Positions 9,701-64,000 of a stretch of DNA of 64,000 bases are shown here, in pieces. This DNA is from Ophelia neglecta (taxonomy: Eukaryota). Every line of letters starts with the position of its first letter. Within the stretch, counting starts at the first letter, position 1. Below the pieces are notes generated by a model, which worked only from the letters and a program-made list of their open reading frames with translations, searched no databases and had not been told where the DNA came from. The DNA lies in the NCBI GenBank assembly GCA_965285935.1, contig OZ260664.1, positions 101,618,001-101,682,000 of the forward strand, in the 5' to 3' direction. Made by a program: the position numbers and the translations under genes.

Positions 9701-12700
9701 GGTAATCCTCCCTTTAGTCCGAGCCAAGATAATTCATGGTACACTGGTTAAGCAGTGTGACATGACCAATATGTGTACCTTAAGAAAGTAAAATCTAAAG
9801 TGTTGAATTGTATTGTTGCATTTTGCTTTCCATTGGCAATCTTTACCCCTGTCTGATGGGTTAGGTTTCAATAAGTCATTAAAAATATCCATTTTCAGTT
9901 CTCAGTATCAATTGTAGGTCAATTACACGTCACCCATTACTTATGTGGATATGCGTGTTATTCATTATATGATTTGTGTAAAGCTTACTGAAGGAAAATT
10001 GCGCAGAATTCTTATGTCAAAATTAAGACATATTCATTTTCAATTAATAGTTCGAAGTATCAATTGATTCTTTTAGGCGGCCGTTTTAAAGAGATACGAG
10101 CATTTTATCTGACAATTGAAATAAGAACCAAAAATATATCATGTCTCTTGGACAAATCGCAATATTCATCAGCCAAACTGCGTGATAAATGTAAATCTTT
10201 AAGTTTAGGCTACTATTTTTTAAATGCTTTTGAAACAAAATGCACATTAAACGCATGGCATGATAATGAAATTATGACAGAACTTTATAACTATTATTTT
10301 TTAAATAATAAGTGGTCCATAAAAGAAGTTTGATAAGTGTAACCAACAATGCATAAATACAATCTAATTAATTAAATTAATTAATTCTAATTAAACACGT
10401 CTTAAATATATTTAATATGTTTTAATTTTTGATAAAAAGCCAAGGATTTCAATTCTCAATATAGCTCGCAAATATAAAAATGTCAAAGTCAAGTCACTCT
10501 TTAGAATTTGTTGACATGCTTCTTATTAACAAAAATAAGTTTTGTTTGCAATTGCGATAGTGCCTTTCCCATGAACAAAAACGGGAGTAGATGTAAAAGT
10601 TCCTCGCATACTAAACAGAAAGTGGTGTTAAATATCCTCGATATTGCGCTTAGATGGACAGACTTAAATGAAGATTTGTTAGTAATAAAAGTTGAGCAAT
10701 GAAACATGATCATGAATAATGTCAATTTTATTTCAAACAGATTGCCAATCTAACGAACCAACTTTGATGCCAGATAGAGCATAGTTTCTTTTTTGCCCTG
10801 AAAGACTGTGACTGAATAGATTTAATGTTATTGTAGTTTGCATCCTGGCCGGCTGTGGCCTCATGTCCGGGGTAGCATCAACTCCTGACTACCTATATTG
10901 GTCTTTAACGCTTGGTGCCTGAAGAGATGCCACGGTCTCTTGGTTTCATATCATTGATTCCACTGCTAACAAGGTTAATCCATGTCGTCCTACCATAGAT
11001 ATAGAGAATACATATCTATGGTCCTACTAACCTCATCAAGACCTGTAATGGGTTTGTGTTTCAGGAGCTTTTCTCTTGTCTAAGCTAGAGTTTAAGCTTG
11101 GCTCATGCTTGCACAAACAGCCAAAATAAACATTAACAATGGTGTCCGGAGTTGTTCAAGTCGGCCAAGGCAATTTGTATAATTCAAGACCCACTTGTTT
11201 CAAAATAGTTAAATTTGACCGAGAAATTTGCAATAAAACGGCAAGTATGACAGCTGACTGGTATCTGCCGCAATCGAGGGGCGTAGTATCTATGTAAATA
11301 GCAAGTTATCAGAGAGCTTGCCGAGCAATGCGGCCTGCTGCACAATTGCATTCTCACATATCTACCGATATTTCCAAGCAAAAGCAAGACGATTAACAAA
11401 CGTTTGATTAACATATTATGTTGGTGTCATGTTTTGGCATACTGAAACATTCTATGAGTTATCTTTATTAGGTAGATGAACGCTTCAGTTCAAACAGCAG
11501 CCAAGATGGAGATGGAGACACTGGCTCAGACACCGGAGACGAGTGCTACGCTGATGATGATATAGGTGAATTGGACAATAAAACAATAGATAGGTGGAGA
11601 ATGAAACACCTAGAGGAGGAATCTAAACCTGCCTATTATCCCATGCAAGAGGCCATAGCTGAAAAAATAGTCGATAGAATAGAAAGTATTCTTCGGCTAT
11701 ACCATGACAAATGTCTGTCAGACTTCGATGACTTTGAATATCAGATTTATACCGCAAAATTTAATATGTTGGAAGAACAAACTGAAAAGAGGGTGTGTGC
11801 CAGGATGGCAGGATGTTTTCATGACAGTGTGTATCAGGATCCGGCATATGTCAGGGATCTAGCAAAACAAAGGGTTCAAAAATATGTGTTGGCTACAACC
11901 GAAGAGAACAGAAATAAGCAGCTGCTTGGGCTGGCAAAAGCTAAACCGGAGACTTTCTTTCTAATAGTAGCTGATGAGGCTCATTGGGGAGTTGGAAAGC
12001 CGGTTGAAAACGAAACTGGCAAAAAACACATGGCAAATGCGAGCGCTTTGAAAGCTGGGGCACATGACACACTCATCAACTGCTGGACTAATAAATTCCA
12101 GAATGTTATTGTCTTGTTAGTCACTGCTACTAGCTTTAATCTGAAAAGTCAAGATTCCCGACTATTGCATCAACAAGATTTTATCAGGATTCGATCAAAA
12201 GCAAGTAACAAAAATGCAACAGGGAATGACCAGCTGTATTTAGTTACAAAGGAAAGAGCTGTCTATATTGATAATAAAACTGACAAACCAGTCAAAATAG
12301 AGAAGAATAGCGAGGTAATGGAAGATAAATTGCACTGTGTGAAATGGTCTGAGGGGCACCGGGATAAGCTTCTTCAGGGTATGGTGGTTAGACTGCGTGT
12401 ACCAAACATGGAAGGACATGAACCTATATGGTTCAAACAAATATCTAAGAAAACTAGTGGTGAAGTTCAACCGGTCTGCGTGACACATGAGGAAGACGAG
12501 TCTTTGGAACTCATCATGACTGGTAGGGATAGAGAAAATGTCGAAATCAAAGCATACAACAGCAATTGCCAAATGATAGCATACAGAGCCAAACGGTCTA
12601 TAGGTGGTCAGCATCAACTTGGATTTATTGAGGTTAGTACTCTGCAAAAGTTTGAAAAGGGAAATGATGTGTGCAGCAAATTCAGAGTTCACATGATATG

Positions 12701-15700
12701 CGGGGAAGACATTTTAGAGCTTGAAGCGGTCAATGTGACCCATGGATACCTGAAGTATGAAAACAAACAAGAATGCATAGCTTTAGGTCGCCGCCCAACC
12801 GATGAAGGATTTGAAGACCTTGGCCTAGCAATTCATGGCTGCGAGTACACATTCATCGTGGACTATTATGCCGAGCACCACATGCTAAAAGGCGCACAGA
12901 AACAACAAATGCAATACCTATCTTTGAACTTCTTCTACAACACCATGCGCAACACAAAGAAGGACGAACAATTGATCAGAAGTGACAAAGACTACATTAG
13001 TATGATAAAAGGCATGGTGAAGTCACAAAAGATAGATACTAACAATAAAACTATTTTGAATGACACGTTGAATGACTATATGGCCGCTGAATATTCCTAT
13101 TACATATTGATGGAACAGTTATTTTTCCAGTGTAGATTGGAAGCACTTTCCGTTGAGCTCTTTGATGTAAACCCTGGCCAAGCTTTTGAACCTGATTATG
13201 TTAAAACCGTGGATAAATTGATACATGACTTCCACAAGGAATTGTGTAAACACCGGGAGAAGTTACCAAGCTCTGGGAATCAAAATCTTCCCATTGAGGC
13301 TGAAATATTTCAAAAGTGGTATGCATTTTTATGTCAAAGAAGTAGAGATGATTTAAAAATGAAATTGAAAGACCGTGACGATAAAGAAACAGCAAATGCC
13401 TTGATCAGATGTTTGCTTTTCCATGGGTCTTCAGAGATGAATAGTTTAAAATTGTGCCTAAAGGGGTACAGTGCTCATTGTCATGAACTGCTTCAAAGGA
13501 AGTGCAATACTTTTCAGGCCACTAAGACAGACATACTTGCAGAATCAGAAACTTACAGGATTGTTAATAGCGTATGCAGAAAACAAAAGTTGGTTGTAGT
13601 TCGGGTCCACAAAAATATTCGGAAATCTGCAAGGAGCTCTCCCGGAAACAGGTTATACAAGACCATCACCATTGCCAGGGACATTGCCTACGGTAAAACT
13701 TTTGAATTTGAAGTGATACGAGATTTTGGAGAATTCACAGTGAGCACGGTAACAGAAGATGTGACGAGTCAGAAGTACAGAATTCACCGACGACTACAAC
13801 CTGAAATATGCCAATATGAAGATGCCAGGTTTTCAAAGTGTAACAGGGGCCCGCGTGGAGAGCCATGTAATAACTACAAGCCAGTGGCGCCAGATCCCAC
13901 ATGTCAGAACTGTGCTCTTAAGCACACTAGTGACTCTGAAGCGGGGCAATGTTTAGATTACAAACCAGTGGCACCAACTCTCACATGTCAAAACTGTAAC
14001 CACAAACACAAAGTAATCAAGGACTACAATGATCTAAACACCCTACCTTGCATCCTGATTCTTGTTGACAAAGGGAGACTAGGACACACATTTCCAGATA
14101 GTTTCTGTGTACTGGATCAAAGGCAGCAATTCAATTATACCAAAATGATAAGTACCAAAGAAAGGAAGTCTGATTTATATTTGTCCCGCATAATGCAAGA
14201 ACTTGGACGACTCTGTCGCTATGCTTACAAACCTGGACAGATATTACCAAACCATCAGGCGTCATCTTATACTGATCTGCCATATGCTCTGGTTGGGGAA
14301 AAGCTATTCAATTATCTTTTTGAGTCACTAAAAGAAGTTCCTGTGTTTTATGGCTATTTCGCAAAGAAAGGTGACCTAGATGCTTATGTAAAATCCCCAG
14401 CGACAGAGCCAGAGAGGGACGAGGATGACCTTCGTGAAAAGGTTACCAAGTTGGTGGCTAACAATAAAAGTTATGATTCCGGAAACACAAAAAAACACAA
14501 AAACAGGCTGTTACTAGAAGCTGAGCCTCAAATTGGTAAAACAGGCGTTTATCTGAAAACTGTGAGCATATTGAGAAAGAAAATTTGCAAGGAAACGGAA
14601 ATTGAGTATATCGAGCAATACGATTCGTCTGATGAAGAAGATAAAGAGGAAATGATGACAGAACCTTCTCTTCCTGCCACGTATGAAGTAGGAACAACGA
14701 ATGAAAACGCGGACCTATGGAGATATCCTTACTGGAGGGACATGGAATCACAAAAACTCCCAAAAGTGGGACCGGGCAAGTACGATCGTACAATTGGATC
14801 TGCACATTCACCTGGAGGAAAAGAAAAAACTGAAAATTTGTTTCAGAAAGACAGAAAAGGACACAAACAGGAAGGAAGAACCATCGAACACGATTTTGAG
14901 CAAGATCAATTTAAAGCTTACAATTACACCCACAGTTGCCCAAAGTGCAGGATACATGAATTAGGCAGGCAGATCAGTAAACGCGTGAAAATTGAGCCTT
15001 CTGGTAGAATTGATGACTCATTTCATGTGAATGTTAGTATTCCAGATTTGAAAGAATATGAGGATGTACAAACGTTAGTTAACCCAGATGAGTCCCAGAG
15101 AAAAATTACATCACAGACATTAAAAACTGATACATCCCTTGAGAGCTGGATATTTACGCCATCTTACAAAAGGCACAATGATGCTACCGTGAATTACAGA
15201 CATACTATGGTACTCGAAGAGAACAGTGACAAATGTCACTATGTCCACTTCCTAGTGGTGAGGAGGGAAGAGTACCCTCTTTACTGTAGTTACTGGGGAA
15301 GTTCACACGGGATTATAGAGCTGCCTGAAGACATTTCCGTCAAGGGTGATGATGATGTCGTGAAAAAGGTAGATGCCGAAAGCGGCGGCATTGGCTATTC
15401 CCGTCTAGTCATTCAGAGGTTCGCAACACAATTGGGTTGTAAACATATTTTCATGATAGATGATAATGTAATGTCCATTCATGAAATAACCACGCAGTGT
15501 GGTGACGACGGACAGGAGAGAATATTGAGAAAAGGCCGGCATCTACAAATCAAAAATGTTCCTTTTTTCAAAGCTCTGAAGCATATAGAGAACCAACTGT
15601 GCCATCCAAAAGACAAAGCGGACAAAGTCATGCAAATTGTAGACAAAGAAAAGGCATTTGATCATGGTGTGCCATTAGAAGGGCTAGAGGGTTATACCGG

Positions 15701-18700
15701 AAGTTCAGACAAATATGCCGTACTTGGCTGCTTAAAAGTCAGACGAGGCGTCCTTCATGTAAAACAACCATTTAAGAAAACTTATGTGTCTTCTCTCGTT
15801 TTGCTAAACCTGCTCTCACTCAGGGAAAAAAACATCCAATATGATATTAAGGAGAAATCATTCGAAGATGTGCATCTGTGTCAAAGATGCGACGAACGGG
15901 GCTTGTGGTCGTGCAAGTACAACCGATTTGTAATGCGGAAACTGAATTTAAAATCCCACATCATTAGTGATATGTTCTATTGGCCAAAAGATGTGAGGCT
16001 GTCATCATACATTAAAGCAACCCAGAAGCTGCCAGATGAGGAGGATGAAAGAAATAGGCTTCTTAGTTGGGTAGAATCCAAACATCCTCCGTCAAATGTT
16101 CAACAGTACCTGCCTCAGGAAAAAAAGGGTAGCGCGGTAGAAGTATGGTGTAAAAAGTTCAAGTCAACCGTAAAGGACAATGCCCAGTTGCATTTATTGC
16201 TATACCTTGACTCAAATAAGTCACTAGTACAACTCCACGAATACTTCAAAGGTACATGTGGAATTGGTGGTTTTGATCACCACATCATTCTCTTCTCGGA
16301 AGTATTCTGTCGAGCAAATGAATTACTTTGTTACAAAGCCTTTGTTTGTAAACTTATAACGCCTGTGTTTGAAGAACAAACCAAATGTGTTGTGATCTCT
16401 ACTCACAGCATTGAGCACTACACTGTCAGATACATAGCCCTTCACATCACAGGAAAAAGTAAGTAAATTTGATATATAATAACGAATCTAAATGTAATAA
16501 CATATAACTCATTCCATATTGTTCTTCAAATGTATATCATTTGATTTCACTGAATGTTGATCGTCTAACTGTAAATGAATATTGCTATACCTTTGCAGTT
16601 TCTCATCCTCTGGACAATGATGCACTGTTTAATGTCATCGTAACACCCTCAGACTCCACGCCAGCGCAAAAAATTGTAATAATACCCGATTCACCTACAG
16701 AAGGAGAACAAGACAAGCAAGTTTCAAAAGAATCCCATCCATCGCCATCGAGGTAATACACTTTCCAATTATTTCTGCCCGTTTCGTGCGATTATGAAAT
16801 ATCTACATTAAAACAACAACGAACGCAACTGATCCTTATTAAGATCCTCTGACGCCGAAAACCGGATTTCTGCTGAATGAGAATTGCTAATCAGTTACTC
16901 ACATAATCATTTTCCACTACATGTTGTTATTAATGCGAGTTTAAATAAGTCTTCCTCTTCCCAATCCAAATTTAAAAGTGAATCCATCTCTCCTTTACTA
17001 GTTATGTTCCATCTTGCCGGTCCTGGGTATGCCGGCTCAAGGCTGAAAGCAGTGTTCAAATCCACTTCAATACTAAAACACCTGGGAAGTGTTCTACAGA
17101 ATACTCGTAGGCTTTAGTACTTATTATTTCTAAAGGAAAGAGATACAACTTTCTCAAGTCGGGTGTTATACTTACATTACGTAAATAGCCCGTTTTAAAC
17201 TGTAGAGTCATAATCAACGTTCGGTAATTGGAACACCAGGGTTACATCAGACAGAAGACACAAGGTTTTACAAATACCATGGGCCCAAACTCGAGTTGAC
17301 ATGATGGGGAGTGTTTAGGTCATACAGAGCCAAAAGAAACTTTTCCTTAGCTACTTAAAAAAAAAGAAAATAAAAATCGCGAAGCAGCCAACTGGAACCT
17401 TAGTAGAGCAGCTAAAACCCAAAACAAATATGTAAATAGAACGAGAGTGGATGTGATATTATTATCTTCCGCAAAGTGACGGCTTTTTTGTTTTGATTTA
17501 TTGTGAAATGATCTTCCGATGATCACCGACACTCCTATGAAGAGGTTCAATGGTCTGCCCACATACTGGACACCACACTCATTGCAAGTTATTAGAAAAC
17601 TAGTTTTAATCGTATGAAAACAAATAGAAATGGAAGAACTAACTGATTGTGTATTTTTGTGCACAAGCACTGAAAAACTGGTGATACCCCACCACTTCCC
17701 CACCACAACATAAAGACGAGACAGCCATCAATTTTTCGAGAAGTGTGGTACCTGTATGTGGAGACGGCCGCTCTCTGTTTAGGTGCATTGCCGCATAAAA
17801 GCTGTCCACGGCAATTTAAATTGATTAACCCACTTCAAATTCACTTTTGGACATAACATAGGTATATCCGTTGCTATTGAACCAAATCCTAACTACCGCG
17901 GTTTACAATATTAAGTTAGTCCGAGCAATCACCATTTTACAGGACTAGGGAACAAATCGTTGCCTTTACCTATGTTTAGGCATGTATTGTGGAGGAATTG
18001 TACTAGTCATGTCACATTAATAAGGAATCCTTATGTTCTGTCACAAACTCTTTATAGCAATTATGTGTGCAAAACAGTGATAGAAATAATTTAAACTCAG
18101 TTCTTCCAAAGCACACTTGTCTATGTCCTATGTTCACCATTTATTCGTTTGCATGGTTGTTTGACTCTTTGATATATTTTCATGTGGGTCATTTTTTTCT
18201 GTCATGAATAGCAGCCACTGCGCGTTTTTTTCGCAATTCACGCATATAATGTAAGAAAATATTACAGAAACATGCTTTCTTTGACGTCTGATTTTTCCTT
18301 GCAGCAGGTCTGATACCCCCAAACCGACAAGTCTAGGTAATGAATTATTTTTATTTGACCAAAACAGCTATATACAAACTCAAATTAACATATACATTAC
18401 TAAGTCGTCCGGACGCCAACACTGGTTGAGGCTGATTGGTTGCAGGCCCTCCTCTTCATTACAACGCCTTATTAAAGTCAATGAAATAAACTATTATAAA
18501 CATGATTATACATGAGCATAATTAATAATAGTCAGCTTAGAATACAATGTATTTCAACATACATACAGTGCATCCATACATATGTAAACATATCGGAACA
18601 AATGTACATACAAATTGACACATCCATAGAGGTGCATACTATAAAATAGGCATCTAATGTACGACCTTGAGATCAGATGAGGTCATTCAAAGACATAAAT

Positions 18701-19673
18701 GTAAAAACCATAATGCAATCGAAGATACAAAGAAGCAGAAAATTGTTTGCAATCATGCTATAAGCAACACTGAAGTGCCTTCTCTTTAACAAGAATTACC
18801 ACTTAATGCACGAACAGTTGCTTTCTGACAAAGATGAAACAAATTGAACTTATAATTTGATGTATGCTTCCATGTTTTTAATTTCAAGTAGTTAGATATA
18901 TTTTTATATCACTGTGTTTAATAACATTTATTAGACCTTTATGGAATGGATATAGCGCCTATGGCTGGAGCAAGGTTTGTGGTATCGTCATATTTGTACC
19001 AATTCTAATAAGAATGATGGGGTACTGATTGCTATATTTTATGAAAAAGCTTAGGGCACTTCAGTGATGGTTTGCTCGAGAAAAAAATCTCCTGACCAGT
19101 GTGCCATTAGCTCATATTATCATATTAGCTCATTTAGCACACTACTGTGTAATAATCTGTCGAATGTAGGGGGTGCTTGACAAAAAACGGTTGAGAGAAT
19201 GCGCCTGATATTGATTACCAAATACGGATGTCTCACATCCAGGGTATCGCGAGTGCAACATTTAGGGAAAAGAGCCTGGTTTGCTAGACGCTTGTTGATT
19301 TTGCGTTATGTAAATATTAATTAATATTTTTGTTTGATATTTAGTTAAATATAAAACCTCTTCCTTTTTTAAGTCATTTCTTGTTATCATTGGATTCGTT
19401 GTTATTTCAGATGATCAGCAAGATGAAACATTTATCCGTGAGAACTCATGTGTATTATGCCACTCTCCAGCAAGCTTTGAAGAGGCAACATGTTTAAGTG
19501 AGTCAGCACTTGAACAATCAACTGTCGCTGTAGTGCACAACATGCTTTGGGTCCGTTGCATTCGTTGTTCCGGTTGGTGCCACCTGCGATGCTGTCCCAA
19601 ATACTACTCATTTGCCGACTTAGTTCTGATAAACAGAGAAGATAATGGATTTTATTGTACTAATTGTCAATAA
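6787..19673 (+). CDS. Multi-exon GREB1-like gene (~2001 aa): TTF-type Zn finger + circularly permuted SF2 helicase + TAGT/GT-A glycosyltransferase + PHD finger. Exons 6787-6847, 6986-7115, 8388-8766, 11472-16458, 16599-16752, 18305-18336, 19411-19673
   Basis: All six introns are GT..AG with matching phases (1,2,0,1,2,1). Exon lengths 61+130+379+4987+154+32+263=6006 nt give 2002 codons ending at TAA 19671-19673. The start codon is the least certain element. Confidence 0.8.
6986..8766 (+). CDS. Exons 2-3 (6986-7115, 8388-8766): TTF-type zinc finger like the N-terminus of hAT transposases/ZMYM1
   Basis: Spliced peptide FDFPRRLQGKKTMKLQPHWLTDYLWLRYSVIENAVYCVYCLLF...YKDWSNLKKRIDSHIKEGSPH fits the FP..W..W L.YS...A..C..C.LF...W....H....H pattern. 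The phase-2 splice cg|g is conserved in three copies. Confidence 0.82.
8109..8286. mobile_element. TA-flanked pogo/Tc1-mariner-like MITE (copies at 39607-39782, 55489-55665, 61463-61639)
   Basis: TIR CAGT(G/A)AAACCTG..AAGACC / GGTCTT..CAGGT(T/G)TCACTG, mostly TA-flanked; internal ggtctgatt repeats. The left TIR of this copy is decayed. Confidence 0.7.
8793..9022. mobile_element. Harbinger-like MITE in intron 3 (copies ~56172-56401, ~62146-62375)
   Basis: gggcccgctcccaggaagcagtcttaag versus reverse complement of the right end gggcctggtttctaaagccggtcttaag. Superfamily is inferred. Confidence 0.55.
10994..11020. mobile_element. 27-bp micro-MITE CATAGATAT..ATATCTATG
   Basis: 9-bp TIR; 7-bp TSD GTCCTAC (10987-10993, 11021-11027); absent at the paralogous site ~58347. 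Confidence 0.75.
11472..16458 (+). CDS. Giant exon 4: GREB1-like circularly permuted SF2 helicase plus GT-A (TAGT/JGT-like) glycosyltransferase
   Basis: Contains ORF 11571-16466, extended in frame to acceptor ttattAG|11472; donor GTAAGT at 16459. Helicase motifs: LIVADEAHWG (~11973), LLVTAT (~12123), LILVDKGRLGHTFP, MQELGRLCRY (~14196), AEPQIGKTG (~14535). GT-A motifs follow: IFTPSYKRH, HFLVVRREEYPLY, GGIGYSR, FMIDDN (~15459), FEDV (~15864). Confidence 0.88.
16860..18000 (-). mobile_element. Degenerate Penelope-like retroelement remnant (GIY-YIG) in intron 5
   Basis: Minus-strand FLITCNECGVQYVGR resembles the PLE GIY-YIG motif YxIxCxxCxxxYVG. Boundaries are approximate. Confidence 0.5.
18305..18336 (+). 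CDS. 32-nt micro-exon (RSDTPKPTSL) with a NAGNAG acceptor
   Basis: tttttccttgCAG|CAG...CTAG|GTAATG converts phase 2 (end of 16599-16752) to the phase 1 needed by the PHD exon. Confidence 0.68.
19411..19673 (+). CDS. Terminal exon encoding a PHD finger (not in ORF track)
   Basis: After gttatttcAG it reads (D)DQQDETFIRENSCVLC...MLWVRCIRCSGWCHLRC...GFYCTNCQ*, a C4-H-C3 pattern with the PHD W-x-x-C-x2-C-x2-W-x-H-x2-C and F-x-C-x2-C signature. Confidence 0.82.
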
Positions 19674-24065: not shown

Positions 24066-24076
24066 TGGTCTCTAAT

Positions 24077-26871: not shown

Positions 26872-26898
26872 AAACTTATACTGTACATTTTATTTCAG

Positions 26899-27932: not shown

Positions 27933-28250
27933 GCAGACAGGCCGGTCCGCCAGAAAGTTTTTGAAACTGTTCTAGAGGTTTAAGATTATAGACTACAAGA
28001 ATCAATTTTAACAGTCACTAATGCAGATCTTCTCTGTCCAACATACAAACTCTAAGACGACAAGTACGCCCTACGTTGACAGGGTAATGAAAAAGGGATC
28101 TAAGCAGGTTTTAAAGGTTTACATGGGTGGAGGTCGTTTCGTTTATCGTACATATAATTCGATTTATACAAAGATAATCTATTATGTCACTGTTTATCAT
28201 ACTAACACTGTTTGGCGCATCTTCTCAAAACTAAACCGATCTAAATAATT

Positions 28251-28935: not shown

Positions 28936-28940
28936 TAATG

Positions 28941-52300: not shown

Positions 52301-52822
52301 AGTCTGACTTGTGGATGAATAAATCAGAAGTATTTGTGTATTTAATCTGTTAAGCAGTGAATCAGTGGTGAGTCTACATGAAGCGGTTCTGATACAGATA
52401 AGAGGGTATTTATACGGCAAATGGCTGTCACAGAACAGCCCCACTTCAGGTAAGGACCTGTTCTAGATACAAGCTTATGTAATCCCGGTGTAATCAGGTA
52501 TAATCAAGTATAATCACCATTCACTGCCATTAATCAGGCCTATAATTGGAGGAGGGCCTTGCCAGCACTGGCACAGACAGTGTATTAAGAGAAACAGGGC
52601 ACACCTGTTCCAACAAGGTCATACAGAGATTAATTTGAATGCTAGTGATCGCCAGTTATCGCCAGTTACCGGCATGCAGTGATCGTGTTAAGCTGGTAAG
52701 GCCGCTGCTGGGCATAAACCAGATTTATGACCATACCTGGAGGGTATTGGACAGGGAAGGCAGATATAGTGAGTTTATGACTGCGATGTGCCATTAAAGG
52801 ATGTACCTTAACGGCGGGAAAA
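46301..52822 (+). repeat. Four tandem copies of a ~1.27-kb unit (starts ~46301, 47568, 48834, 51581); single copy at ~1071-4318
   Basis: Recurring marker tttcatttttagctcactcaggcgtgttgaaat at ~1266-bp spacing once the LINE in copy 3 is removed. Confidence 0.9.
49834..51319 (+). mobile_element. 5'-truncated I-group LINE (RNase H, CCHC, 3' UTR, tail) inserted in tandem unit 3
   Basis: FTDGSK, SIFTAEITAI, GIKGNEAAD, CEGC..HILLDC motifs with frameshifts; AGCACT duplicated at 49828-49833 and 51320-51325; neighbouring units show the empty site. Confidence 0.92.
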
Positions 52823-53984
52823 GGCAGTATGGACGAGATTAAATATGGGGCGGAGGTTGGGACGGTTGAATTAATTGTCAGAGTTCATAAGGAGGGTGTC
52901 AGGTGGGTCTCTCACAAAGGGGCTCTGAAAGCTTATAGAGGGTGTGGGATGGGTGTCTCCATCCCCGAATGGGGTCTGATGGCTTATAAAAGGTGTTCAT
53001 TTCCTTGGATGGTCGCTCTACCGCACCTTCACTCAACCAAGACACGAAGACATTCACCCGTTGAGGTGTGTTCAATATGTGGCTACTTGGATGAATCACA
53101 CACAGTGAAGATTAATCATTTAGTTAGATCCCAGTAAATGCACTGTAGCATCAATGAAGTAAATTTATGTAGAGTTAGTAAAGCCCTGATGACCTGAATT
53201 CTTTGCTTCTAGGGTGAGAGCTTCTGGGAACAGATTGGGACAGGGCGTTTGATGTGTATGCAATTTAATACGACATGGGCCGACAGCAGTCTATTTGCCT
53301 AATCAGTATCCCCATATTCTGAGAAAATATATATGACATACTCTTAAAAGACGAAATTGCATTGATAAATTGATTGTAACATTGATCTGTATAGGCTGCA
53401 TTCATAATTATTAGTTTGCATATACAAACTTAGTTGGGAATACTTTCTTTTTTCTTATCAAATCAACAGCAGAATGTAAGTATGCTGCATCATATTAAAT
53501 ACTTGTTCTGCTATTCAAGAGCCGACAGGAAACATGCACACACTACCGAATGCCATCTGAATGAGCATGGCCAATCATTATCACCACCACACCACGTCCA
53601 CTGTCCCATGATTCTGGTATAGAGGGCCAGTCCATCTGGGCTGAGGCCTAGTTTGTCTTGTGCACGTCCAGTCCAACTTAAAAACAGGGGGTCATTGTGT
53701 TGACAAGGTCAGTTCACGTCGTAAGGTCGGCGGTCCAATAATTCTGGTGTAGATGCACAGCCAAAGTTTTAGGTTCACCCGTCGAGTGTGTGAACTGCAG
53801 ATGCACAGCCAAAGTCCCAGTTTCAGCGCTCCAGCGGTGGAATTTATTTCTTTTTCTAAAAAAAAGGTAACACCATGAATGTCTCTGAAAGGAGCAGCCA
53901 AGATGGATATTGAGACACTGGGACAGACACCGGAAACAAGTTTGCTACATTGTTGATGATATAAGTGAAGTGGACAATAAAACA

Positions 53985-56900
53985 ATGGACCGGGGGAGAA
54001 AGGAACTCCCTGTGTCGGGTTCAAATGCCCCTTCAACATCTGTAGGTAAGCGAAATACTGTGTCAGAGCACAGACCCAGTGCATAGCTCAGAGTCTTAGT
54101 GATCTATACATTTGAATACGTAATTTAGCCTGTATATATTCGGTTGATCACTTTGCATGTGTTTTATGTGAGAACTCTTTCAGACAGTGCCTCCAGACGT
54201 GAGCCGCCATACCCTGACCCAGCAACATGTGAACTTACTGATGAACAAAAGTTTTCACTTTTAACTTCTAAATGGGAAGAGGAACACCTGCGGAACTTTG
54301 ACTTTCTTCCACGGTTAGTCTCACATGTATGATGCCACACGAGCTATGTATAGAATAAATCAAGCTTTAAACCCTATTTAAGGCAAAGTAAATAATTGAC
54401 AGTTGTATGATTGTTTTGTTTAATTGGTTGTGTAACAAGAATATAATGTGATAGCACTTATTAATAACGTCGGGAAACACGTGACACGCGGGCTGGGGGT
54501 GGGGGTAATAGGGATGAGCAGGTTACAGTGGCTCTTCTCATAGTCAGCTCATTTACTTAATTTTTATAAAAACATATATGTTTGGCCTGACATGAAGAAT
54601 AGATGTAATTATATAAAACTATACCAAAGAACAAAATAGAAATGTAAGTTACTTTTGAGAAACGCCAGTTTAAACATAGCTATGATGGTTTTTTGGTGGG
54701 GGGGGGGGGCGGGGGGGGGGGGGCACCGGTCATGGTAAAGGATAAGGATCCTACGTTAATTGTCAATACTGAATAATCAAGCCCTGACTAGCAAAAAAAT
54801 TCCACTTTTTCAATCCACGTGAAATGTAAAAAGGGGCCATTCTACCTTATTTCAAAAACTGAATGACAACATAAGAGTTATATGTGCTTATTGAAACGTT
54901 ACTGATTTCCTGATCTAAATACACAGTTGAGAGCTGATTGTTTTCGCACATCTTGTACAAACTTGATAACGTACAGTATATGGCAGAATATTTTACAAAT
55001 TTGTGATATTTTTATGCGTTTGTTGGAATATAACCTTATAGATACTGCACTTTTTAGAGCAGGCGAAGGCTAAATACGACAGTGGATACACTATAGACCA
55101 AACAATATATTTAATTAATGTTAATTCATTAAATAGGTTCGAAATCACAAGGAATGATGGACCAAGCTCTCATAATTGTGAGACTAAAACAGGATGCAAA
55201 TTGTGGCCGTGTTATCATATTAAAGAACAAGCGCTTGCTCCCTCATAAATGCATATACTGATTTATATTATAATATTATTTGAGACATGAAACTTGGTTT
55301 CCTCAAATCATGTCACCTAACATCCTTTTAAATGGTATTTGTCCTGACCTCTTTTTTTAGGCATTAAACAGACTAAGTCAGTCAACATTGCAGAGATTTA
55401 TAATACGTGGCTATCCTAAACCTGTTGACCAAGGTTCCTTTAATTAATGCAGGGAAGTGATCATCTTGCACTGTGGATTCTTAATCTACAGTAAAACCTG
55501 TGAATTAAGACCCCCCAGGGACTGAAAAATGCTGGTCTGATTTTGGAGGTGGTCTGCTTAGACAGGTTATTAAATATTAAAAATTTATGTCAGGGTCCTC
55601 ATATTAAGTGTCTGAATTGGCAGGTGGTCTGATTATAGAGGTGGTCTTTAAGACAGATGTCACTGTATTTATCCACCCGACAATATGAGTAGTCACAGTT
55701 TAATATCTGTGTTTCAGTAATTACATTTCATCTTGAATGATTTTCTGTCTGCTTGTCATTGTTCAGGCGGCGGGGCAAGAAAACTATGAAGCTTCAGCCA
55801 CATTGGCTTATAGACTACCCATTGTTGCGGTATTCAGTGAGCGAGAATGCTGTCTACTGTGTTTACTGCCGGCTATTTGGAAAAGAAGATCAAACATTCG
55901 GTCGGTCTGCAGGTTATAAAGATTGGTCTAACCTGAAGAAGCGTATAGACAGTCATATTAAAGAGGATTCCCCGCATTATCATTGCATAAATGAGGCTGA
56001 AACTTATTTAAAGACATTTCGCAACGTTGGCGCCATGAAAAATGAGAAGGATGTAAACGAGGAGGTGGTTACAATAACACTCGAAGACGACCAGTCCGAT
56101 TTGATGGAGGACCTCCAGGGAGACAACACAGAGATCAATAGAAAGGTGGGTGGTCTTTACAAGTATACCCTGGGTCCGCTCCCAGGAAGCAGTCTTAGCG
56201 CATCACCTGAATTAAAATCAGGATAGAATTAAAGGGATTATTCGGTTTCAACTTGCTGATATGGGTTTCTGGAATCTGGAGTTTTGTCCTTAACCCGACC
56301 ATTTTGGTCTTAACCTTAATCCTGGTCAATGGAATCACCAATTAACGAGTTCTCAGTTAATCTAATCCCTAAACTTAAGACCGGCTTTAGAAACCAGGCC
56401 CTCAAGTTCACCCAACTGTTGCTCCTTGTGAAAATGACATGAATCTACAATAGTAAATTCTTATGCTTACATAATCCGAAGAAACATTTTTGTTTACTAG
56501 ACAAGTAAAAGCATTCAGTATTAATTTAATACTCAATGCAAATGTTCCAGATGGCAGTTTGGCAAAAGGCCAAAGACTTACCAAAAGAGCAAGTCAACAG
56601 ATACCGCTAATATAATACTTCAAAATAAATAAACACCATGCACAAAGGCCAAAGACAGAAGAGAGAACGGTTTTATTTGCATTTGTTTGCAGAATGGTAG
56701 CATGCAAATGGCAAATCTCAATGGCATTACGAAGCTTCGCACACAATTGACATGCAGCATTGTTTTCTATTCGGAGCTTTGTACTAAATAATGGCCAAAT
56801 CGCTTTAATTTTTATTTAGATTGTTCTTAAATGACAAAAACTGTATCATTTTCATAATCAGTGCTTATGTAATTTGGTTGCTGGTGCCAATGATTAACGC

Positions 56901-59900
56901 TGTTCAAGTTAAAAATAATTAACAAGACAGTCGCTTGATTTTATTTGATCTGTGTCGAGGTGATCATTCCGATAGCCAACGCCAAAGTCGGACTTCCCGG
57001 ACAGGGAGTATGCTTACAAGCTTAAACATGCCGGTTTTTCTGTCTAGTCCTGACTAGACATGTAAAAAATTCAACGCAATTCATACCGTTTTCCACAGGG
57101 TAGGCCTCCCTTTAGTCCGAGCCAAGATAATTCATGGTACACTGGTTTAGCACTGTGACATGACCAATATGTTTACCTTAAGAAAGTAAAATCTGAAGTG
57201 TTCCATTGGCAATCATTACGCCTGTCTGATGGGTAAGGTTTCAATAAGTCATTAAAAATATCCATTTTCGGTTCTCAGTATCAATTGTAGGTCAATTACA
57301 CGTCACCCATTACTTATGTGGATATGGGTGTTATTTATTATATGATTTGTGTAAAGCTTACTGAAGGAAAATTGCGCCGGGGTCATTTTTTTTTTAAATT
57401 AAGACATATTCATTTTCAATTAATAGTTCAAATTATTAATTGATTCTTTTAGGCGGCCGTTTTAAAGAGATATGAGCATTTTATCTGACAATTGAAATAA
57501 GAACCAAAAATAATTCATGTCTCTTGGACAAATCGCAATATTCATCAGCCAAACTGCGTTATAAAAGTAAATCTATATGTTTAGGCTACTATTTTTTAAA
57601 CGCTTTTGAAACAAAATGCACAGTAAACGCATGGCATGATAATGAAATTATGACAGAACTTTATATCTATTATTTTTTAAATAATAAGTGGTTCATAAAA
57701 GAAGTTTGATTAGTGTAACCTACAATGCATAAATACAATCTAATGATGTTAAACACGTCTTTAATATATTTTATATGTTTTAATTTTTGTTAAAAAGCCA
57801 GGGATTTCAATTCTCAATATTGCTCGCAAATATAAAAATGCCAAAGTCAAGTCAATCTTTAGAATTTGTTGACATGCTACTTATTAAAAAAAAAAAAATG
57901 TTTGTAATTGCGATAGTGCCTTTCCCATGAACAAAAACGTGTAGATGTAAAAGTTCCTCGCATACTAAACAGGAAATGGTGTTAAATATCTTTGATAGTG
58001 CGCTTAGATGGACAGACTTAAATGAAGATATGTTAGTAATAAAAGTTGAGCAATGAAACATGATCATGAATAATGTCAATTTTATTTCAAACAGATTGTC
58101 AATCTAACTAACCAACTTTGATGCCAGATAGAGCATAGTTTCTTTTTTGCCCTGAAAGGCTGTGACTGAATAGATTTAATGTTATTGTAGTTTGCAACCT
58201 GGCCGGCTGTGGCCTCATGTCCGGGGTAGCACCAACTCCTTTGTATGACTACCTATATTGGTCTTTAACGCTTGGTGCCTGAAGAGATGCCACGGTCTCT
58301 TGGTTTCATATCATTGATTCCACTGCTAACAAGGTTAATCCATGTCGTCCTGCTAACCTCATCAAGACCTGTAATGAGTTTGTGTTTCGGGAGCTGTTCT
58401 CTTGTCTAAGCTAGAGTTTAAGATTTGTGAGCAAATGGCTGGTTGATAATAAACTGTCACTTCATCTGGGGAAAACTGAATGTATTGTTTTTGGTACAAA
58501 GAAAAGGTTGTCTTAAACTCCCACTTTGAATATTATTTGTAATGGGATAAAAATTAAATGTGTCACCCAAGTAAAATATTTGGGAGGCTTGTTGGACAGT
58601 AATATGAGTGGTGAGGCTATGGGAATTTCAGCTGTTCAAAAAATTAATTCAAGAATTAAATTTTTATTTAGAAAACAGTCATATTTGACACCCTATGTGA
58701 GAAGACTTCTGTGTGGTGCGCTTATTCAGTCTCACTTTGATTATGGCTGTACATTCTGGTTTTATGTTGTGTCTGCGTACACAAAAAAGCGTTTACAGTG
58801 CGCCCAAAACAAGGCTGTTCGTTTTGCTTATGGACTGCATCCCAGGCAGCATTTGTATGAGTCCTTCTTCAAGGAATTGTCATGGCTATCGGTTGAAAAG
58901 AGAGTGGATTTTCTTACTTTATGTCTTGTTTTTAAGTGTGTAAATGGTATAGCGCCTTCTTATATTAGTAATTTTGTTAAAGTGAGTGACACACATGACC
59001 ACTCTACCAGGGCCAGTCAGTATAATTTAATTGTGCCCAAAGCAAATGCCAATTCAGGTCTAAACACCTTTGCATGTACAGGGGCAAGGCTATGGAATGC
59101 CTTGCCTAATAATCTCAAGTGCTTATCTAGTCAGGAGATGTTTAAGTCTGCCTGTAAACAATTTTTGTTGAGCACTTTGTAATTTCTAGGGGGCTTTTTT
59201 TTTCCATATTAGGCTATGAATGTAACCAAATGGATGTGTGTCACTCGCTGCTATTATTTTGTGGTGCTATGTATTGTCGTCCACTCTCTAGTCAAGGGCC
59301 GTAATGGAAATAAGTCCTCATCTGCAGAACTTTTTATGCTCCCTTTTCAGGAGATTGGGAAATGTGATGGTGCCATATATTTATTGTTTTCTGTGATATA
59401 CATTGTATTTTGTACACCGTCTATTTACTTTTTCTGAATAAAATCAAATCAATCAATCAATCAAGCTTGGCACATGCTAGCACATAAAACGGTGTCAGGA
59501 GTTGTTTAAGTCTGCCAAGGCCATTTGTATAATTTAAGATCCAATTGTTTCAAACAAAATACATTTGACCAGGATATTTGCAATAATTCAGCAAGAAAAA
59601 CCACCATCATGACGTCTAAAGTATGACAGCAGACTGGTACCTGCCGTAATCCAGGGGAGTAGTATCTATAAAAATAGCAAGTTATCAGAGAGCTTGCCGA
59701 GCAATTCAGCCTGCTGCACAATTGCATTCTCACATATCTACCGATATTCTCAAGCAAAAGCAATACGATTAACAAACGTTTGATTAACATATTATGTTGG
59801 TGTCATGTTTTGGCATACTGAAGCATTCTATGAGTTATCTTTATTAGGTAGATGAACGCTTCAGGTCAAACAGCAGCCAAAATGGAGATGGAGACACTGG

Positions 59901-62119
59901 CACAGACACCGGAGACGAGAGCTACACTGATGATGATATAAGTGAAGTAGACAATAAAACAATTGACAGGAGGAGAAAGGAACTCCCTGTGTCGGGTTCA
60001 AATGCCCCTTCAACATCTCTAGGTAAGCGAAATACTGTTTCAGAGCACAGACACAGTCCATAGCTTAGAGTCTACTGATATACACATTTGAATACGTAAT
60101 TTAGCCTGTATATATTCGGTTGATCACTTTGCACGTGTTTTAATTTGAGAACTGTTTCAGACAGTGCCTCCGGACATGGGCCGCCATACCCTGACCCAGC
60201 AACTTGTGAACTAACTGATACAGAAAAGGATTTACTTTTAACTTCTGAATGGAAAGAGGAACACATCTGGAGCTTTGACTTTCCTCCACGGTTAGTATCA
60301 CATATATGATGTCACACGAGCTATATATAGAAGAAATCAAGCTTAAAACGCTTATTAGGTCAAAGTAAATAATTGTCAGTAGTATGATTGTTTTGTTTAA
60401 TTGGTTGTGTTACAAGAATAGAATGTGATAGCATTTATTAATAACGTCGGGAAACATGTGACACGCGGGCTGGGGGTGGGGGTAATAAGGATGAGTAGGT
60501 TACATTGGCTCTACTCGTAATCAGCTCATTTACTTAATTTTTATAAACACATAAATGTTTGGTCTGACATGAAGAATAGATGTAATTATTTAAAACTATA
60601 CCAAAGAACAAACAGGAATGTAAGTTACTTTCGAGATACGCCAGTTTAAACATAGCTGGGATGTTTGTTTCTTTTGAGGGGGGGGGGATGGGCACCGGTC
60701 TTGGTAAAGGATAAGGATCCTACGTCAGTTGTCAATACTGAATAATCAGCACGGCACTCAAACCATCAAAAATTCCACTTTTTCAATCCACGTGTAATTC
60801 AAAAAGGGGGTCCTTCTACCTTATTTCAAAAACTGAATGACAGCATAAGAGTTATATGTGCTTATTAAAACGTTACTGATTTCCCGATCTAAATACACAG
60901 TTGAGAGCTGATTGTTTTCGCACATCTTGTACAAACTTGATAACGTACAGTATATGGCAGAATATTTTACAAATTTGGGATATTTTTATGCGTTTGTTGG
61001 AATATAACCTTATGGATACTGCACTTTTTAGAGCAGGCGAAGGCTAAATACGACAGTGGATACACTATAGACCAAATAATATATTTAATTAATGTTAATT
61101 CATTAAATAGGTTCGAAATCACAAGGAATGATGGACCAAACTCTCATAATTGTGAGACTTAAACAGGATGCAAATTGTGGCCGTGTTATCATATTAAAGA
61201 ACAAGCGCTTGCTCCCTCATAAATGCATATACTGATTTATATTATAATATTATTTGAGACATGAAACTTGGTTTCCTAAAATCATGTCACCTAACATCCT
61301 TTTTAATGGTATTTGTCCTGACCTCTTTTTTTAGGCATTAAACAGACTAAGTCAGTCAACATTGCAGAGATTTATAATACATGGCTATCCTAAACCTGTT
61401 GACCAAGGTTCCTTTAATTAATGCAGGGAAGTGATCATCTTGCACTGTGGATTCTTAATGTACAGTAAAACCTGTGAATTAAGACCCCCCAGGGACTGAA
61501 AAATGCTGGTCTGATTTTGGAGGTGGTCTGCTTAGACAGGTTATTAAATATTAAACATTTATGTCAGGGTCCTCATATTAAGTGTCTGAATTGGCAGGTG
61601 GTCTGATTATAGAGGTGGTCTTTAAGACAGGTGTCACTGTATTTATCCACCCGACAATATGAGTAGTCACAGTTTAATATCTGTGTTTTAGTAATTACAT
61701 TTCATCTTGAATGATTTTCTGTCTGCTTGTCATTGTTCAGGCGGCGGGGCAAGAAAACTATGAAGCTTCAGCCACATTGGCTTACAGACTACCCATTGTT
61801 GCGGTATTCAGTGAGCGAGAATGCTGTCTACTGTGTTTACTGCCTGCTATTTGGGGAGGAAGATCAAACATTCGGTCGGTCTGCAGGTTATAAAGATTGG
61901 TCTAACCTGAAGAAGCGTATAGACAGTCATATTAAAGAGGGTTCCCCGCATTATCATTGCATAAATGAGGCTGAAACTTATTTAAAGACATTTCGTAACG
62001 TTGGCGCCATGAAAAATGAGAAGGATGTAAACGAGGAGGTGGGTACAATAACACTCGAAGACGACCAGTCCGATTTGATGGAGGACATCCAGGGAGACAA
62101 CACAGAGATCAATAGAGAG
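53985..62119 (+). CDS. 5' part of a second paralogue with two tandem TTF Zn-finger modules. Exons 53985-54045, 54184-54313, 55767-56145, 59848-60022, 60161-60290, 61741-62119; continues beyond the window
   Basis: Exon sizes match locus 1 (61/130/379) with a 175-nt linker exon. All frames are open and splice sites conserved. Sequence after 62119 again matches locus-1 intron 3 up to the window end. Confidence 0.78.
58423..59462 (+). mobile_element. 5'-truncated L2/Crack-like LINE in an intron of paralogue 2
   Basis: WLVDNKLSLHLGKTE, KYLGGLLD, QSHFDYGC, GARLWNALP motifs; AATAAA plus (ATCA)n tail; empty site tttaagcttgg at ~11091; AAG on both sides. Confidence 0.9.
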
Positions 62120-64000
62120 GTGGGTGGTCTTTACAAGTATACCCTGGGTCCGCTCCCAGGAAGCAGTCTTAGCGCATCACCTGAATTAAAATCAGGATAG
62201 AATTAAAGGGATTATTCGGTTTCAACTTGCTGATATGGGTTTCTGGAATCTGGAGTTTTGTCCTTAACCCGACCATTTTGGTCTTCACCTTAATCCTGGT
62301 CAATGGAATCACCAATTAACGAGTTCTCAGTTAATCTAATCCCTAAACTTAAGACCGGCTTTAGAAACCAGGCCCTCAAGTTCACCCAACTGTTGCTCCT
62401 TGTGAAAATGACATGAATCTACACTAGTAAATTCTTATTCTTACATAATCCGAAGAAACATTTTAATCATTTTGTTTACTAGACAAGTAAAAGCATTCAG
62501 TATTAATTTAATACTCAATGCAAATGTTCCAGATGGCAGTTTGGCAAAAGGCCAAAGACTTACCAAAAGAGCAAGTCAACAGATACCGCTAATATAATAC
62601 TTCAAAATAAATAAACACCATGCACAAAGGCCAAAGAAAGAAGAGAGAACGGTTTTATTTGCATTTGTTTGCAGAATGGTAGCATGCAAATGGCAAATCT
62701 CAATGGCATTACGAAGCTTCGCACTCAATTGACATGCAGCATTGTTTTCTATTCGGAGCTTTGTACTAAATAATGGCCAAATCGCTTTAATTTTTATTTA
62801 GATTGTTCTTAAATGACAAAAACTGTATCATTTTCATAATCAGTGCTTATGTAATTTGGTTGCTGGTGCCAATGATTAACGCTGTTTCGATAGCCAACGC
62901 CAAAGTCGGACTTCCCGGACAGGGAGTATGCTTACAAGCTTAAACATGCCGGTTTTTCTGTCTAGTCCTGACTAGACATGTAAAAAATTCAACGCAATTC
63001 ATACCGTTTTCCACAGGGTAGGCCTCCCTTTAGTCCGAGCCAAGATAATTCATGGTACACTGGTTTAGCACTGTGACATGACCAATATGTGTACCTTAAG
63101 AAAGTAAAATCTAAAGTGTTCCATTGGCAATCATTACGCCTGTCTGATGGGTTAGGTTTCAATAAGTCATTAAAAATATCCATTTTCGGTTCTCAGTATC
63201 AATTGTAGGTCAATTACACGTCACCCATTACTTATGTGTATATGGGTGTTATTTATTATATGATTTGTGTAAAGCTTACTGAAGGAAAATTGCGCCGGGG
63301 TCATTTTTTTTTAAAATTAAGACATATTCATTTTCAATTAATAGTTCAAATTATTAATTGATTCTTTTAGGCGGCCGTTTTAAAGAGATATGAGCATTTT
63401 ATCTGACAATTGAAATAAGAACCAAAAATAATTCATGTCTCTTGGACAAATCGCAATATTCATCAGCCAAACTGCGTTATAAAGGAAATCTATATATTTA
63501 GGCTACTATTTTTTAAACGCTATTGAAACAAAATGCACATTAAACGCATGGCATGATAATGAAATTATGACAGAACTTTATATCTATTATTTTTAAAATA
63601 ATAAGTGGTTCATAAAAGAAGTTTGATTAGTGTAACCTACAATGCATAAATACAATCTAATGATGTTAAACACGTCTTTAATATATTTTATATGTTTTAA
63701 TTTTTGTTAAAAAGCCAGGGATTTCAATTCTCAATATTGCTCGCAAATATAAAAATGCCAAAGTCAAGTCAATCTTTAGAATTTGTTGACATGCTACTTA
63801 TTAAAAAAATAAAATTGTTTGTAATTGCGATAGTGCCTTTCCCATGAACAAAAACGGGTAGATGTAAAAGTTCCTCGCATACTAAACAGGAAATGGTGTT
63901 AAATATCTTTGATAGTGCGCTTAGATGGACAGACTTAAATGAAGATATGTTAGTAATAAAAGTTGAGCAATGAAACATGATCATGAATAATGTCAATTTT

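Follow-up and report, generated by a model that had tools for sequence, protein, structure and literature searches.

The DNA analysed here, a 64,000-nt stretch of the Ophelia neglecta genome (the window), holds two paralogous genes, the second of which carries a zinc-finger module twice. This raises the question of how a coding unit comes to be iterated within a gene, and what a variable number of fingers may do for the protein that carries them.

The repeated three-exon unit

At locus 2, the predicted first coding exon (53985..54045, forward strand like all features below; 61 nt) runs from the ATG to a phase-1 donor and is followed by exon 2 of module 1 (54184..54313, 130 nt), predicted to encode a hAT transposase N-terminal segment, and exon 3 (55767..56145, 379 nt), with a putative hAT-type zinc finger and an acidic tail. 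Intron 3 contains a 5′-truncated LINE fragment (58420..59463, ends approximate), a marker present in 15 of the 26 intron-3 copies in the genome. Next come a chimeric linker exon (59848..60022, 175 nt, phase 0 to phase 1; ttattag precedes its initial GTA and gtaagc follows its final CTAG) and exons 2 (60161..60290, 130 nt) and 3 (61741..62119, 379 nt, zinc finger) of module 2. The unit recurs in tandem after 5,974 bp, and the second copy is 95–99% identical to the first. Together the linker and the two module exons form an open unit of 684 nt (175 + 130 + 379) that starts and ends in phase 0, as an earlier note on this DNA had described with coordinates that all held. Its reading of the second paralogue as an in-frame tandem duplication of three exons was likewise borne out: the complete 684-nt unit occurs 26 times in the genome, a recurrence far beyond chance.

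Intron 3 of module 2 (62120..64000) continues beyond the window until the acceptor of the giant exon (G000:C7:101683725, L001:1725), and the giant, E5, OTU and PHD-type exons of locus 2 follow it, past the window end. Inspection of the next window, which had been suggested as a check, revealed an intact giant exon 1.7 kb beyond the window end and no third module before it. Locus 2, previously credited with at least two fingers, has exactly two, in a predicted CDS open over 2,460 aa. Locus 1 has the single module expected (6787..8766; exons 6787-6847, 6986-7115 and 8388-8766), a giant exon (11472..16466) encoding a predicted cpSF2-GREB1 helicase and TAGT glycosyltransferase, and predicted 3′ exons within 16599..19673 (16599-16752, 18305-18336 and 19411-19673). 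Its giant exon has a predicted donor after 16458 and, if left unspliced, runs into a stop at 16464-16466; of the predicted 3′ exons, 18305-18336 is a remnant of the OTU exon with an in-frame deletion, and 19411-19673 encodes a PHD-type finger.

The exon joins of all loci are predicted from sequence. Three sequencing runs, all of one sample from one study and perhaps those behind the assembly itself, covered introns as evenly as exons and gave no spliced joint among the joints listed, with contigs too short to span the linker exon; the runs therefore behave as DNA. It is conceivable that no splice joins the modules to the giant exon and that they are stand-alone finger ORFs or dead copies next to a giant ORF that uses an internal ATG, given the early Met of the giant exon and the 26 intron codons that reading through the exon-3 donor adds before a stop. 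However, the phases agree, the opening of the giant ORF coincides with its acceptor, and the read-through peptide is disrupted in 7 of 26 copies whose exons are unbroken, which favours use of the donor and makes this arrangement hardly probable.

Upstream of the modelled start lies a 12-codon ORF (53875..53913) that resembles the start of a single-copy paralogue and begins at the likely ancestral start (ATG AAT); the TGA that closes it is fixed across all 14 loci, and the ORF may now serve as 5′ UTR. Its position ahead of the modelled start at all 14 loci counts against the explanation that we favour below. Recoding of this TGA was considered and rejected, as the homologous codon is Gly and three loci, A2-A4, are frameshifted behind it. 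A 1.27-kb repeat further marks the upstream region; its number varies, and Rfam and tRNA searches gave no match that would explain it.

Origin of the module and its multiplication

The repeated module is, judged by homology, the N-terminus of a hAT transposase. Exon 3 aligns with a transposase of the same genome (G000:C2:8.11 Mb; 40% identity, E = 4 × 10−10) at a score reached by none of 500 shuffled sequences, and this transposase carries DUF4371 and Dimer_Tnp_hAT above the Pfam cut-offs. The two share an intron at the same Arg codon in the same phase (phase 2), and exons 2 and 3, once joined, align continuously across their junction with hAT proteins P0156 and P0157, which belong to the further relatives P0155-P0157. 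A single-sequence search with exon 3 gave no match; a profile search did find the hAT relatives. No close parent hAT element was found in the genome. The module resembles the DUF4371-type hAT N-terminus in its motif (W-x-x-x-Y-x-W/L-L-R-Y...CxxC-x-x-FG...H), its preceding helical segment and its intron position, but lacks DUF4371 and any catalytic or dimerisation domain; we take a hAT N-terminal finger of this type to be ZnF_TTF. The hAT source, like the GREB1-like identity and the OTU and PHD exons treated below, was absent from the earlier note.

We found that the linker exon is chimeric as described before, resembling the giant exon through nt 83 and exon 1 from nt 94. The proposal that it arose by unequal crossover stands in that the exchange falls within a tract of about 110 nt (53893..54009) that is 83–85% homologous to the giant-exon start and would have been the crossover substrate. 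It needs one correction, in that the event was not confined to this paralogue. The same crossover interval (59931..59940) and the same private allele (59920; both letters at this site are implied in the reads of the three runs) recur in all 12 linker exons, which traces the chimeric exon to a single event, followed by copying. Later changes copied entire 6-kb units, and exons 2 and 3 and intron 2 give conflicting trees.

These data suggest a stepwise history. From homology, a 5′ fragment of a hAT element would have inserted where a GREB1-like ORF without introns begins, and about 110 nt of that beginning would lie duplicated beside the insert. A single crossover within this tract, as the diagnostic sites show, then produced the phase-0/phase-1 linker and with it a self-contained coding unit of 684 nt. 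Mosaic trees and the shared LINE marker point to subsequent unequal exchange of 6-kb units, giving two, three and four modules, and the whole gene was probably duplicated too. In this way the family records, stage by stage, a path from captured transposon exon to iterable symmetric module, and of its anatomy and origin as a whole we are highly confident.

Copy number, integrity and selection

Finger number does vary, as had been anticipated: the young family comprises 14 loci with one to four modules each and 26 complete modules. Most loci show 93–98% protein identity; A2, A3 and A4 are 99.7–99.8% identical across the gene body. Uncollapsed haplotypes or collapsed repeats could explain this last group, yet the 14 loci differ in module number, TE insertions, deletions and flanks, which defeats the haplotype objection raised earlier, confines any inflation to A2-A4 at most and leaves an assembly artefact as an extremely unlikely account of the whole.

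The copies sit at three distant genomic places, and the one on C12 has sharp ends. Together with the intronless core, and with three domains whose nearest in-genome relatives are in hAT or probable mobile elements, this could mean that the entire unit moves as a giant mobile element and expands selfishly with the gene as cargo. We consider this very unlikely: no transposase or integrase ORF is common to the units (ORFs ≥230 aa), flank homology is ragged, and the C12 copy is circularly permuted, with neither a terminal inverted repeat nor a target duplication at its ends, which fits duplication via a DNA circle.

Predicted CDSs are open through the giant exon in 10 of 14 loci and from ATG to the PHD stop in six (2,000–2,919 aa), the other eight being truncated or broken. 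Exon 5 of B1-B4 and A5 contains a stop, upstream of OTU and PHD. In the modelled frame, all 26 modules are free of frameshifts and stops (none of 167 changes is a stop, P ~2 × 10−4), and their exons have only two indels, each of 6 nt, whereas 1,603 intron columns hold 46 non-triplet gaps. All module splice dinucleotides are intact except one donor in the broken locus A6. Extra modules are thus at least kept translatable. Purifying selection acts on the giant exon (dN/dS = 0.47, p = 1.5 × 10−12). For the modules, in a set that includes broken A6 and non-independent copies, dN/dS was 0.80 by allele count (p = 0.22; finger core 0.59, p = 0.051; exon 2 0.97) and 0.95 pairwise, indicating weak amino-acid constraint.

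Finger number might accordingly be neutral churn in a functional fusion gene, with the recombination-prone 110-nt repeat and 6-kb unit generating variants of which only in-frame products survive. Module dN/dS values indistinguishable from 1, near-identical internal modules in A7 and A8, conflicting trees of the kind that constant exchange predicts, and the varying number of the 1.27-kb upstream repeat all speak for this reading. Against it, the modelled frame is unbroken in all 26 modules, and the four largest open genes besides A1 are all multi-finger, A1 being the only one of seven single-module loci open to the PHD stop. Neutral churn is possible on this evidence, though we lean against it.

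The GREB1-like enzyme and the possible role of its fingers

By its domain matches and motifs, the giant exon is predicted to encode a GREB1-like, circularly permuted SF2 helicase followed by a TAGT glycosyltransferase. Pfam matched cpSF2-GREB1 (PF20692; E = 1 × 10−66, 226 bits, cut-off 26.2) and, C-terminal to it, TAGT (PF20691; E = 3 × 10−17, 63.5 bits, cut-off 27.5), the same order as in GREB1/GREB1L and GREB1-like proteins, and the permutation appears in motif order (DEAH at ~aa 168, QELGR at ~909 and GKT at ~1022, with Walker A after motif VI). The helicase motifs DEAH, TAT, QELGR and GKT and the glycosyltransferase motifs DDN and ED are intact across family and homologues, MIDDN and FEDV (the TAGT DD/ED motifs) in 11 of 11 intact giant exons. 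The closest named homologue, at 34% identity, is P0002, a hypothetical protein from an annelid, with which an Atlas query returned GREB1-type clusters only. An orthologue of GREB1/GREB1L proper was ruled out by the intact ATPase motifs and the missing N-terminal GREB1 domains; the giant exon had no Pfam match to GREB1_N, GREB1_2nd or GREB1_C. The available text of PMC7968844 and PMC6163654 describes the human GREB1 helicase as inactive. Unlike human GREB1, the present family has intact helicase motifs, and unlike GREB1/GREB1L and GREB1-like proteins it has its core in a single 5-kb exon, 14 young copies, and hAT fingers, OTU and PHD in addition.

The OTU exon matches Pfam OTU (E = 2 × 10−7, 32.3 bits, cut-off 23.3), with the triad residues D..C and H present as GDGRC and GHF in 11 of 11 loci with a full exon 6. 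The last exon has a C4HC3 pattern of PHD type, and its three PDB matches, weak at E 0.1–0.5, are all PHD fingers (including KMT2D and BPTF); its structure model is poor (pLDDT 40). Pfam matched neither the finger nor the PHD-type exon, and a PDB sequence search with OTU and finger was empty. ORFs flanking the PHD relatives had no Pfam match bar one BEN domain; from motifs, the elements around these relatives are presumably CMC/EnSpm-like. Neither finger module nor PHD matched any of the 154 proteins compared, and the single-copy paralogue, 55% identical, has no finger, OTU or PHD within 25 kb. Intact helicase and transferase motifs, together with the finger, OTU and PHD gained relative to that paralogue, make the family a good place to ask whether an animal GREB1-like enzyme can modify DNA or chromatin.

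Within each finger, the putative zinc ligands (CxxC, DSH, xxH) are complete in 25 of 26 modules, the exception being broken A6, which lacks the last His, and the predicted recognition helix is nearly invariant, which favours avidity over specificity. The finger model (pLDDT 67) has a topology of two strands and a helix; Foldseek gave no match at E 0.001 with this middling model, and its best VIA structure matches were weak (Z ≤4.4; e.g., TUT4, Z 4.4, rmsd 2.2, 63 aligned), with no BED listed.

Our best explanation, which we consider somewhat probable overall, is a 14-copy GREB1-like family with one to four hAT fingers whose predicted protein likely acts on chromatin, more fingers likely holding it more tightly on repeated motifs. 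The chances of the functional part, a chromatin-acting enzyme with DNA-gripping fingers, are about even. Weak constraint on the modules, the eight broken or truncated loci, the middling finger model, the missing Pfam matches for finger and PHD-type exon, and a genome search that yielded no close parent hAT all weigh against the explanation. In such a protein the fingers would grip DNA, the PHD finger would read a histone tail and the OTU domain would strip ubiquitin, and the SF2 motor, with its intact motifs, may burn ATP as TAGT places a sugar on a DNA base or a chromatin protein. Such proteins could instead be cytoplasmic immune sensor-effectors that detect foreign nucleic acid through helicase and fingers and modify proteins through TAGT and OTU, their copies turning over by ordinary immune birth-and-death. 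Broken copies are numerous, homologues carry caspase, kinase, ankyrin, ZZ or weak OTU domains as fusion partners, and the finger's best, weak fold matches are RNA-binding zinc-finger proteins such as TUT4. Transposase N-termini and PHD fingers are usually nuclear, however; the transposase-derived finger and PHD-type C-terminus therefore point to the nucleus, and the finger shows no excess of replacement changes, making an immune role unlikely. As far as the available text of PMC7968844 goes, human GREB1 is a mostly cytoplasmic O-GlcNAc transferase that glycosylates a protein, which supports the immune reading and counts against the chromatin model.

A bolder and doubtful extension of the chromatin model is an animal DNA-glycosylation writer, in which captured transposase fingers, whose multiplication would add avidity, would guide an active helicase and a glycosyltransferase of base-J type to repeats or the ends of transposons, and PHD and OTU would tie the mark to chromatin. 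If true, this would be an expanding, KRAB-ZNF-like defence family that introduces a sugar-modified base into the genome of an animal. The ancestors of GREB1-like proteins were DNA-base glycosyltransferases; in the literature consulted, the sole demonstrated substrate is a cytoplasmic protein (available text of PMC7968844). Our literature search, which covered papers without supplements, yielded none on a fusion of hAT finger and GREB1-like protein, and Iyer et al. 2013 may describe such GREB1-like fusions.

KRAB-ZNF proteins and PRDM9 combine finger arrays of variable DNA-binding unit number with a chromatin effector in tandemly expanding clusters. Our family resembles them in its varying unit number, fusion to a putative chromatin effector and tandem cluster expansion, but differs in its 228-aa three-exon units, long acidic linkers, near-constant predicted recognition helix and lack of any sign of positive selection. 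In the accessible part of their paper, Cosby et al. (bioRxiv 10.1101/2020.05.07.082677) demanded RNA support for host-transposase fusions; like these, the present genes have a putatively DNA-binding domain from a transposase N-terminus, encoded by exons of its own with predicted in-frame splicing to a host domain, and multiplied by gene duplication. Unlike them, as far as that part goes, they are from an invertebrate, have an enzyme rather than KRAB as host part, iterate the captured domain one to four times, and have predicted joins. Hermes, according to the text available of PMC10368747, assembles several BED fingers to locate its end, which counts for avidity, although its multivalency is that of an octamer and the family's that of tandem copies in one chain. 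Judged from the sequences, avidity is a likelier role of finger number than new specificity. The enzyme part is 93–99.9% identical across loci with one, two, three and four fingers, a natural series in which the effect of finger number is directly testable.

A duplicated three-exon module and its family

The window covers G000:C7:101618001-101682000, and the duplication of a three-exon finger module at its second locus, A2, is real. The linker exon (59848-60022, +), exon 2 (60161-60290, +) and exon 3 (61741-62119, +) have canonical GT-AG sites and total 684 nt, an open unit running from phase 0 to phase 0 as the earlier note had proposed, and they repeat the first module (53985-54045, 54184-54313, 55767-56145, +) with a tandem period of 5,974 bp. 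That note counted one finger at the first locus, A1, and at least two at A2, and advised looking downstream for further modules and a second giant (catalytic) exon. A1 carries one module; because an intact giant exon begins after the second module of A2, at C7:101683725, 1.7 kb beyond the window end, A2 has exactly two.

DNA searches of this 762-Mb animal genome recovered 26 full copies and one fragment of the finger exon, together with 14 near-identical giant exons, and all 14 loci were retrieved for comparison: nine in a 550-kb cluster (A0-A8, C7:101.5-102.1 Mb), four at C7:89.2-89.9 Mb (B1-B4) and one on C12. Finger number is indeed variable, from one to four modules per locus (four in A7 and A8; three in A0 and A5; two in A2, A3 and A4; one in A1, A6 and each of B1-B4; one broken on C12). 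All complete modules (26/26) have exons of 61 or 175, 130, and 379 or 385 nt and a stop-free translation; A6 has lost its exon-2 donor. The predicted coding sequence is open to the last stop in 6 of 14 loci (A0, 2,693 aa; A1, 2,000; A2, 2,460; A3, 2,460; A7, 2,919; A8, 2,917), A1 being the only one of seven single-module loci open to the end. In A5 and B2-B4 the frame runs unbroken across the giant exon and ends at a stop in exon 5. A4, A6, B1 and C12 are broken. A2, A3 and A4 share 99.7-99.8% identity over the gene body and differ in flanks and deletions; this triplet is the only part of the family that assembly error could plausibly inflate, and we regard an artefactual origin of the copies as very improbable.

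In B1-B4 (G000:C7:89.25-89.93 Mb) and A5, the in-frame exon 5 stop would cut off the OTU and PHD exons, which are still open. Truncated 3′-end fragments (giant-exon tail, OTU, PHD) lie between intact loci at G000:C7:101564150-101570345, 101910174 and 89399981.

Domain composition and origin of the fusion

Pfam identifies cpSF2-GREB1 (E 1e-66) and TAGT (E 3e-17) domains in the giant exon. Its helicase motifs (DEAH, TAT, QELGR, GKT) and those of the transferase (DDN, ED) are all intact, a state shared with invertebrate-type homologues, whereas PMC7968844 and PMC6163654 describe the human GREB1 helicase as inactive. By domain test the fusion gene encodes a GREB1-like protein and not a GREB1 orthologue. 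A phase-1 donor immediately 5′ of the giant-exon stop leads to three further predicted exons in frame. Exon 6 is a predicted OTU domain with its catalytic triad (intact at L001:8604-9268, downstream of the window; G000:C7:101690604-101691268); it is full-length in 11/14 loci, incomplete in A6 and carries an in-frame deletion in A5 and A1 (remnant at 18305-18336), so domain content varies and not finger number alone. Exon 7 has a C4HC3 pattern, and all three of its PDB matches are PHD fingers with weak E-values.

A family search found at least one further cpSF2-GREB1 locus (G000:C7:74371574-74376727; L059-L060), single-copy, intact and 55% identical, which we used as outgroup; no finger, OTU or PHD lies within 25 kb of it. 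Among 154 proteins compared, none matches the finger module or the PHD, and other homologues (25 scanned) carry caspase, kinase, ankyrin, ZZ or weak OTU domains.

Outside the family, exon 3 best matches a hAT transposase at C2:8.11 Mb carrying DUF4371 and Dimer_Tnp_hAT (40% identity, E 4e-10; score against its finger exon reached by 0/500 shuffles). Exon 2 aligns weakly with the preceding hAT exon (2-12/500 shuffles), the module and hAT introns coincide, in phase 2 of a shared Arg codon, and two hAT proteins, P0156 and P0157, align with joined exons 2+3 without a break at the junction. These similarities indicate that the module derives from a hAT transposase N-terminus, the catalytic part being absent. 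The linker exon has no match to hAT. The C2 element (G000:C2:8111008-8113870; L104), the nearest in-genome relative of the module, is a recognisable transposase gene with a frameshift.

The nearest in-genome relatives offer only leads to the sources of the OTU and PHD. Those of the OTU (24-26% identity, E about 0.004) sit inside multi-copy ORFs of 2,300-2,400 aa, one with DUF6589, which are probably a mobile element family. In these ORFs (L120-L123; G000:C7:23.88 Mb, C5:102.6 Mb, also C1 and C142) we noted a Cys-rich tail and, in one, a tandemly doubled OTU. The nearest PHD relatives sit among ORFs which we take to be CMC/EnSpm-like, a label that Pfam did not confirm.

A stretch of about 110 nt that leads up to the exon-1 ATG and takes it in shares 83-85% identity with the start of the giant exon, and an ATG-AAT start 108-110 nt farther upstream, resembling that of the outgroup, is interrupted by TGA in 14/14 loci. 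The hAT fragment may have inserted together with a duplication of the host gene's first codons, after which translation would have shifted to the new ATG. The linker exon had been described as a chimera of giant-exon start and exon-1 end produced by unequal crossover at A2. Up to nt 83 it is of the giant type, and from nt 94 onward of the exon-1 type, the product, on this alignment, of a single crossover at 59931-59940; the event is not private to A2, however, since all linker exons (12/12) share this switch point and a private A at nt 73, and so the chimera arose once. A LINE fragment in intron 3 is present in 15/26 units and missing from A5 and every single-module locus, and separate trees for exons 2 and 3 and intron 2 disagree, a pattern that points to later change in which whole units were exchanged unequally or converted. 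In A8 (G000:C7:102046650-102061936), consecutive intron-3 copies of 7.1 and 8.7 kb hold two LINE insertions, the exons unbroken.

The C12 copy (G000:C12:55563232-55586782, 23.5 kb; L076-L079) has sharp ends and a circularly permuted order, and neither inverted repeats nor a target duplication were found at its ends. It thereby resembles the DNA-circle-mediated duplications of PMC7450558; that the whole unit is itself mobile is improbable. Most of its finger exon is deleted, and DEAH reads DDAH.

Selection and a proposed function

Counting alleles in 11 intact copies gave a giant-exon dN/dS of 0.47, with 146 synonymous and 264 replacement changes (p 1.5e-12). The dN/dS comparison among fingers that the earlier note recommended gave 0.80 for modules by allele count (p 0.22; pairwise mean 0.95) and 0.59 for the finger core (p 0.051); exon 2 gave 0.97, and the OTU (0.73) and PHD (0.57) were non-significant. 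The module figures, here and below, come from recombining, non-independent copies and include the broken A6. Neutral churn in finger number is accordingly a real if lesser possibility. Against this, the 570 exon columns hold two indels, each of 6 nt, versus 46 non-triplet gaps in 1,603 intron columns (alignment inflates gap counts), and none of 167 module changes is a stop (P about 2e-4), which argues that module reading frames are maintained. The peptide beyond the exon-3 donor is broken in 7/26 copies, and it is quite unlikely that modules are left unspliced. Changes in the predicted recognition helix are all conservative, giving no hint that specificity has diversified.

Most likely, the product would be a nuclear enzyme whose fingers, derived from a transposase, provide DNA binding with an avidity dependent on their number; PHD and OTU would link the enzyme to chromatin, and TAGT would glycosylate a DNA base or chromatin protein. 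Human GREB1 O-GlcNAcylates ER-alpha in the cytoplasm, according to PMC7968844 and PMC6163654, and a cytoplasmic immune effector is an unlikely alternative. The rival readings are not all mutually exclusive. For the nuclear enzyme, Hermes offers a parallel: as outlined in PMC10368747, it multimerises, bringing BED fingers together on its transposon end, whereas here finger number would be set within the predicted protein. In its working principle the gene resembles the host-transposase fusions of bioRxiv 10.1101/2020.05.07.082677; that study demanded RNA support, whereas the exon joins of the present family are predicted from DNA sequence. Among the papers that our literature search listed, none describes a GREB1-like/hAT-finger fusion.

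Neighbouring features

A 1.27-kb tandem unit of varying copy number lies upstream of the loci (46299-52986 and about 811-4476), with no Rfam or tRNA match. A tyrosine-recombinase retrotransposon, presumably DIRS/Ngaro, occupies 23817-28940, with RT and integrase-like ORFs and split terminal repeats 99% identical. An intact DUF1647 gene (31923-32987, -) is co-duplicated with several family loci, and a 17/34-bp satellite (37768-38737) has a matching array that lies downstream of both A2, about 15 kb away, and A3, 4.6 kb away.
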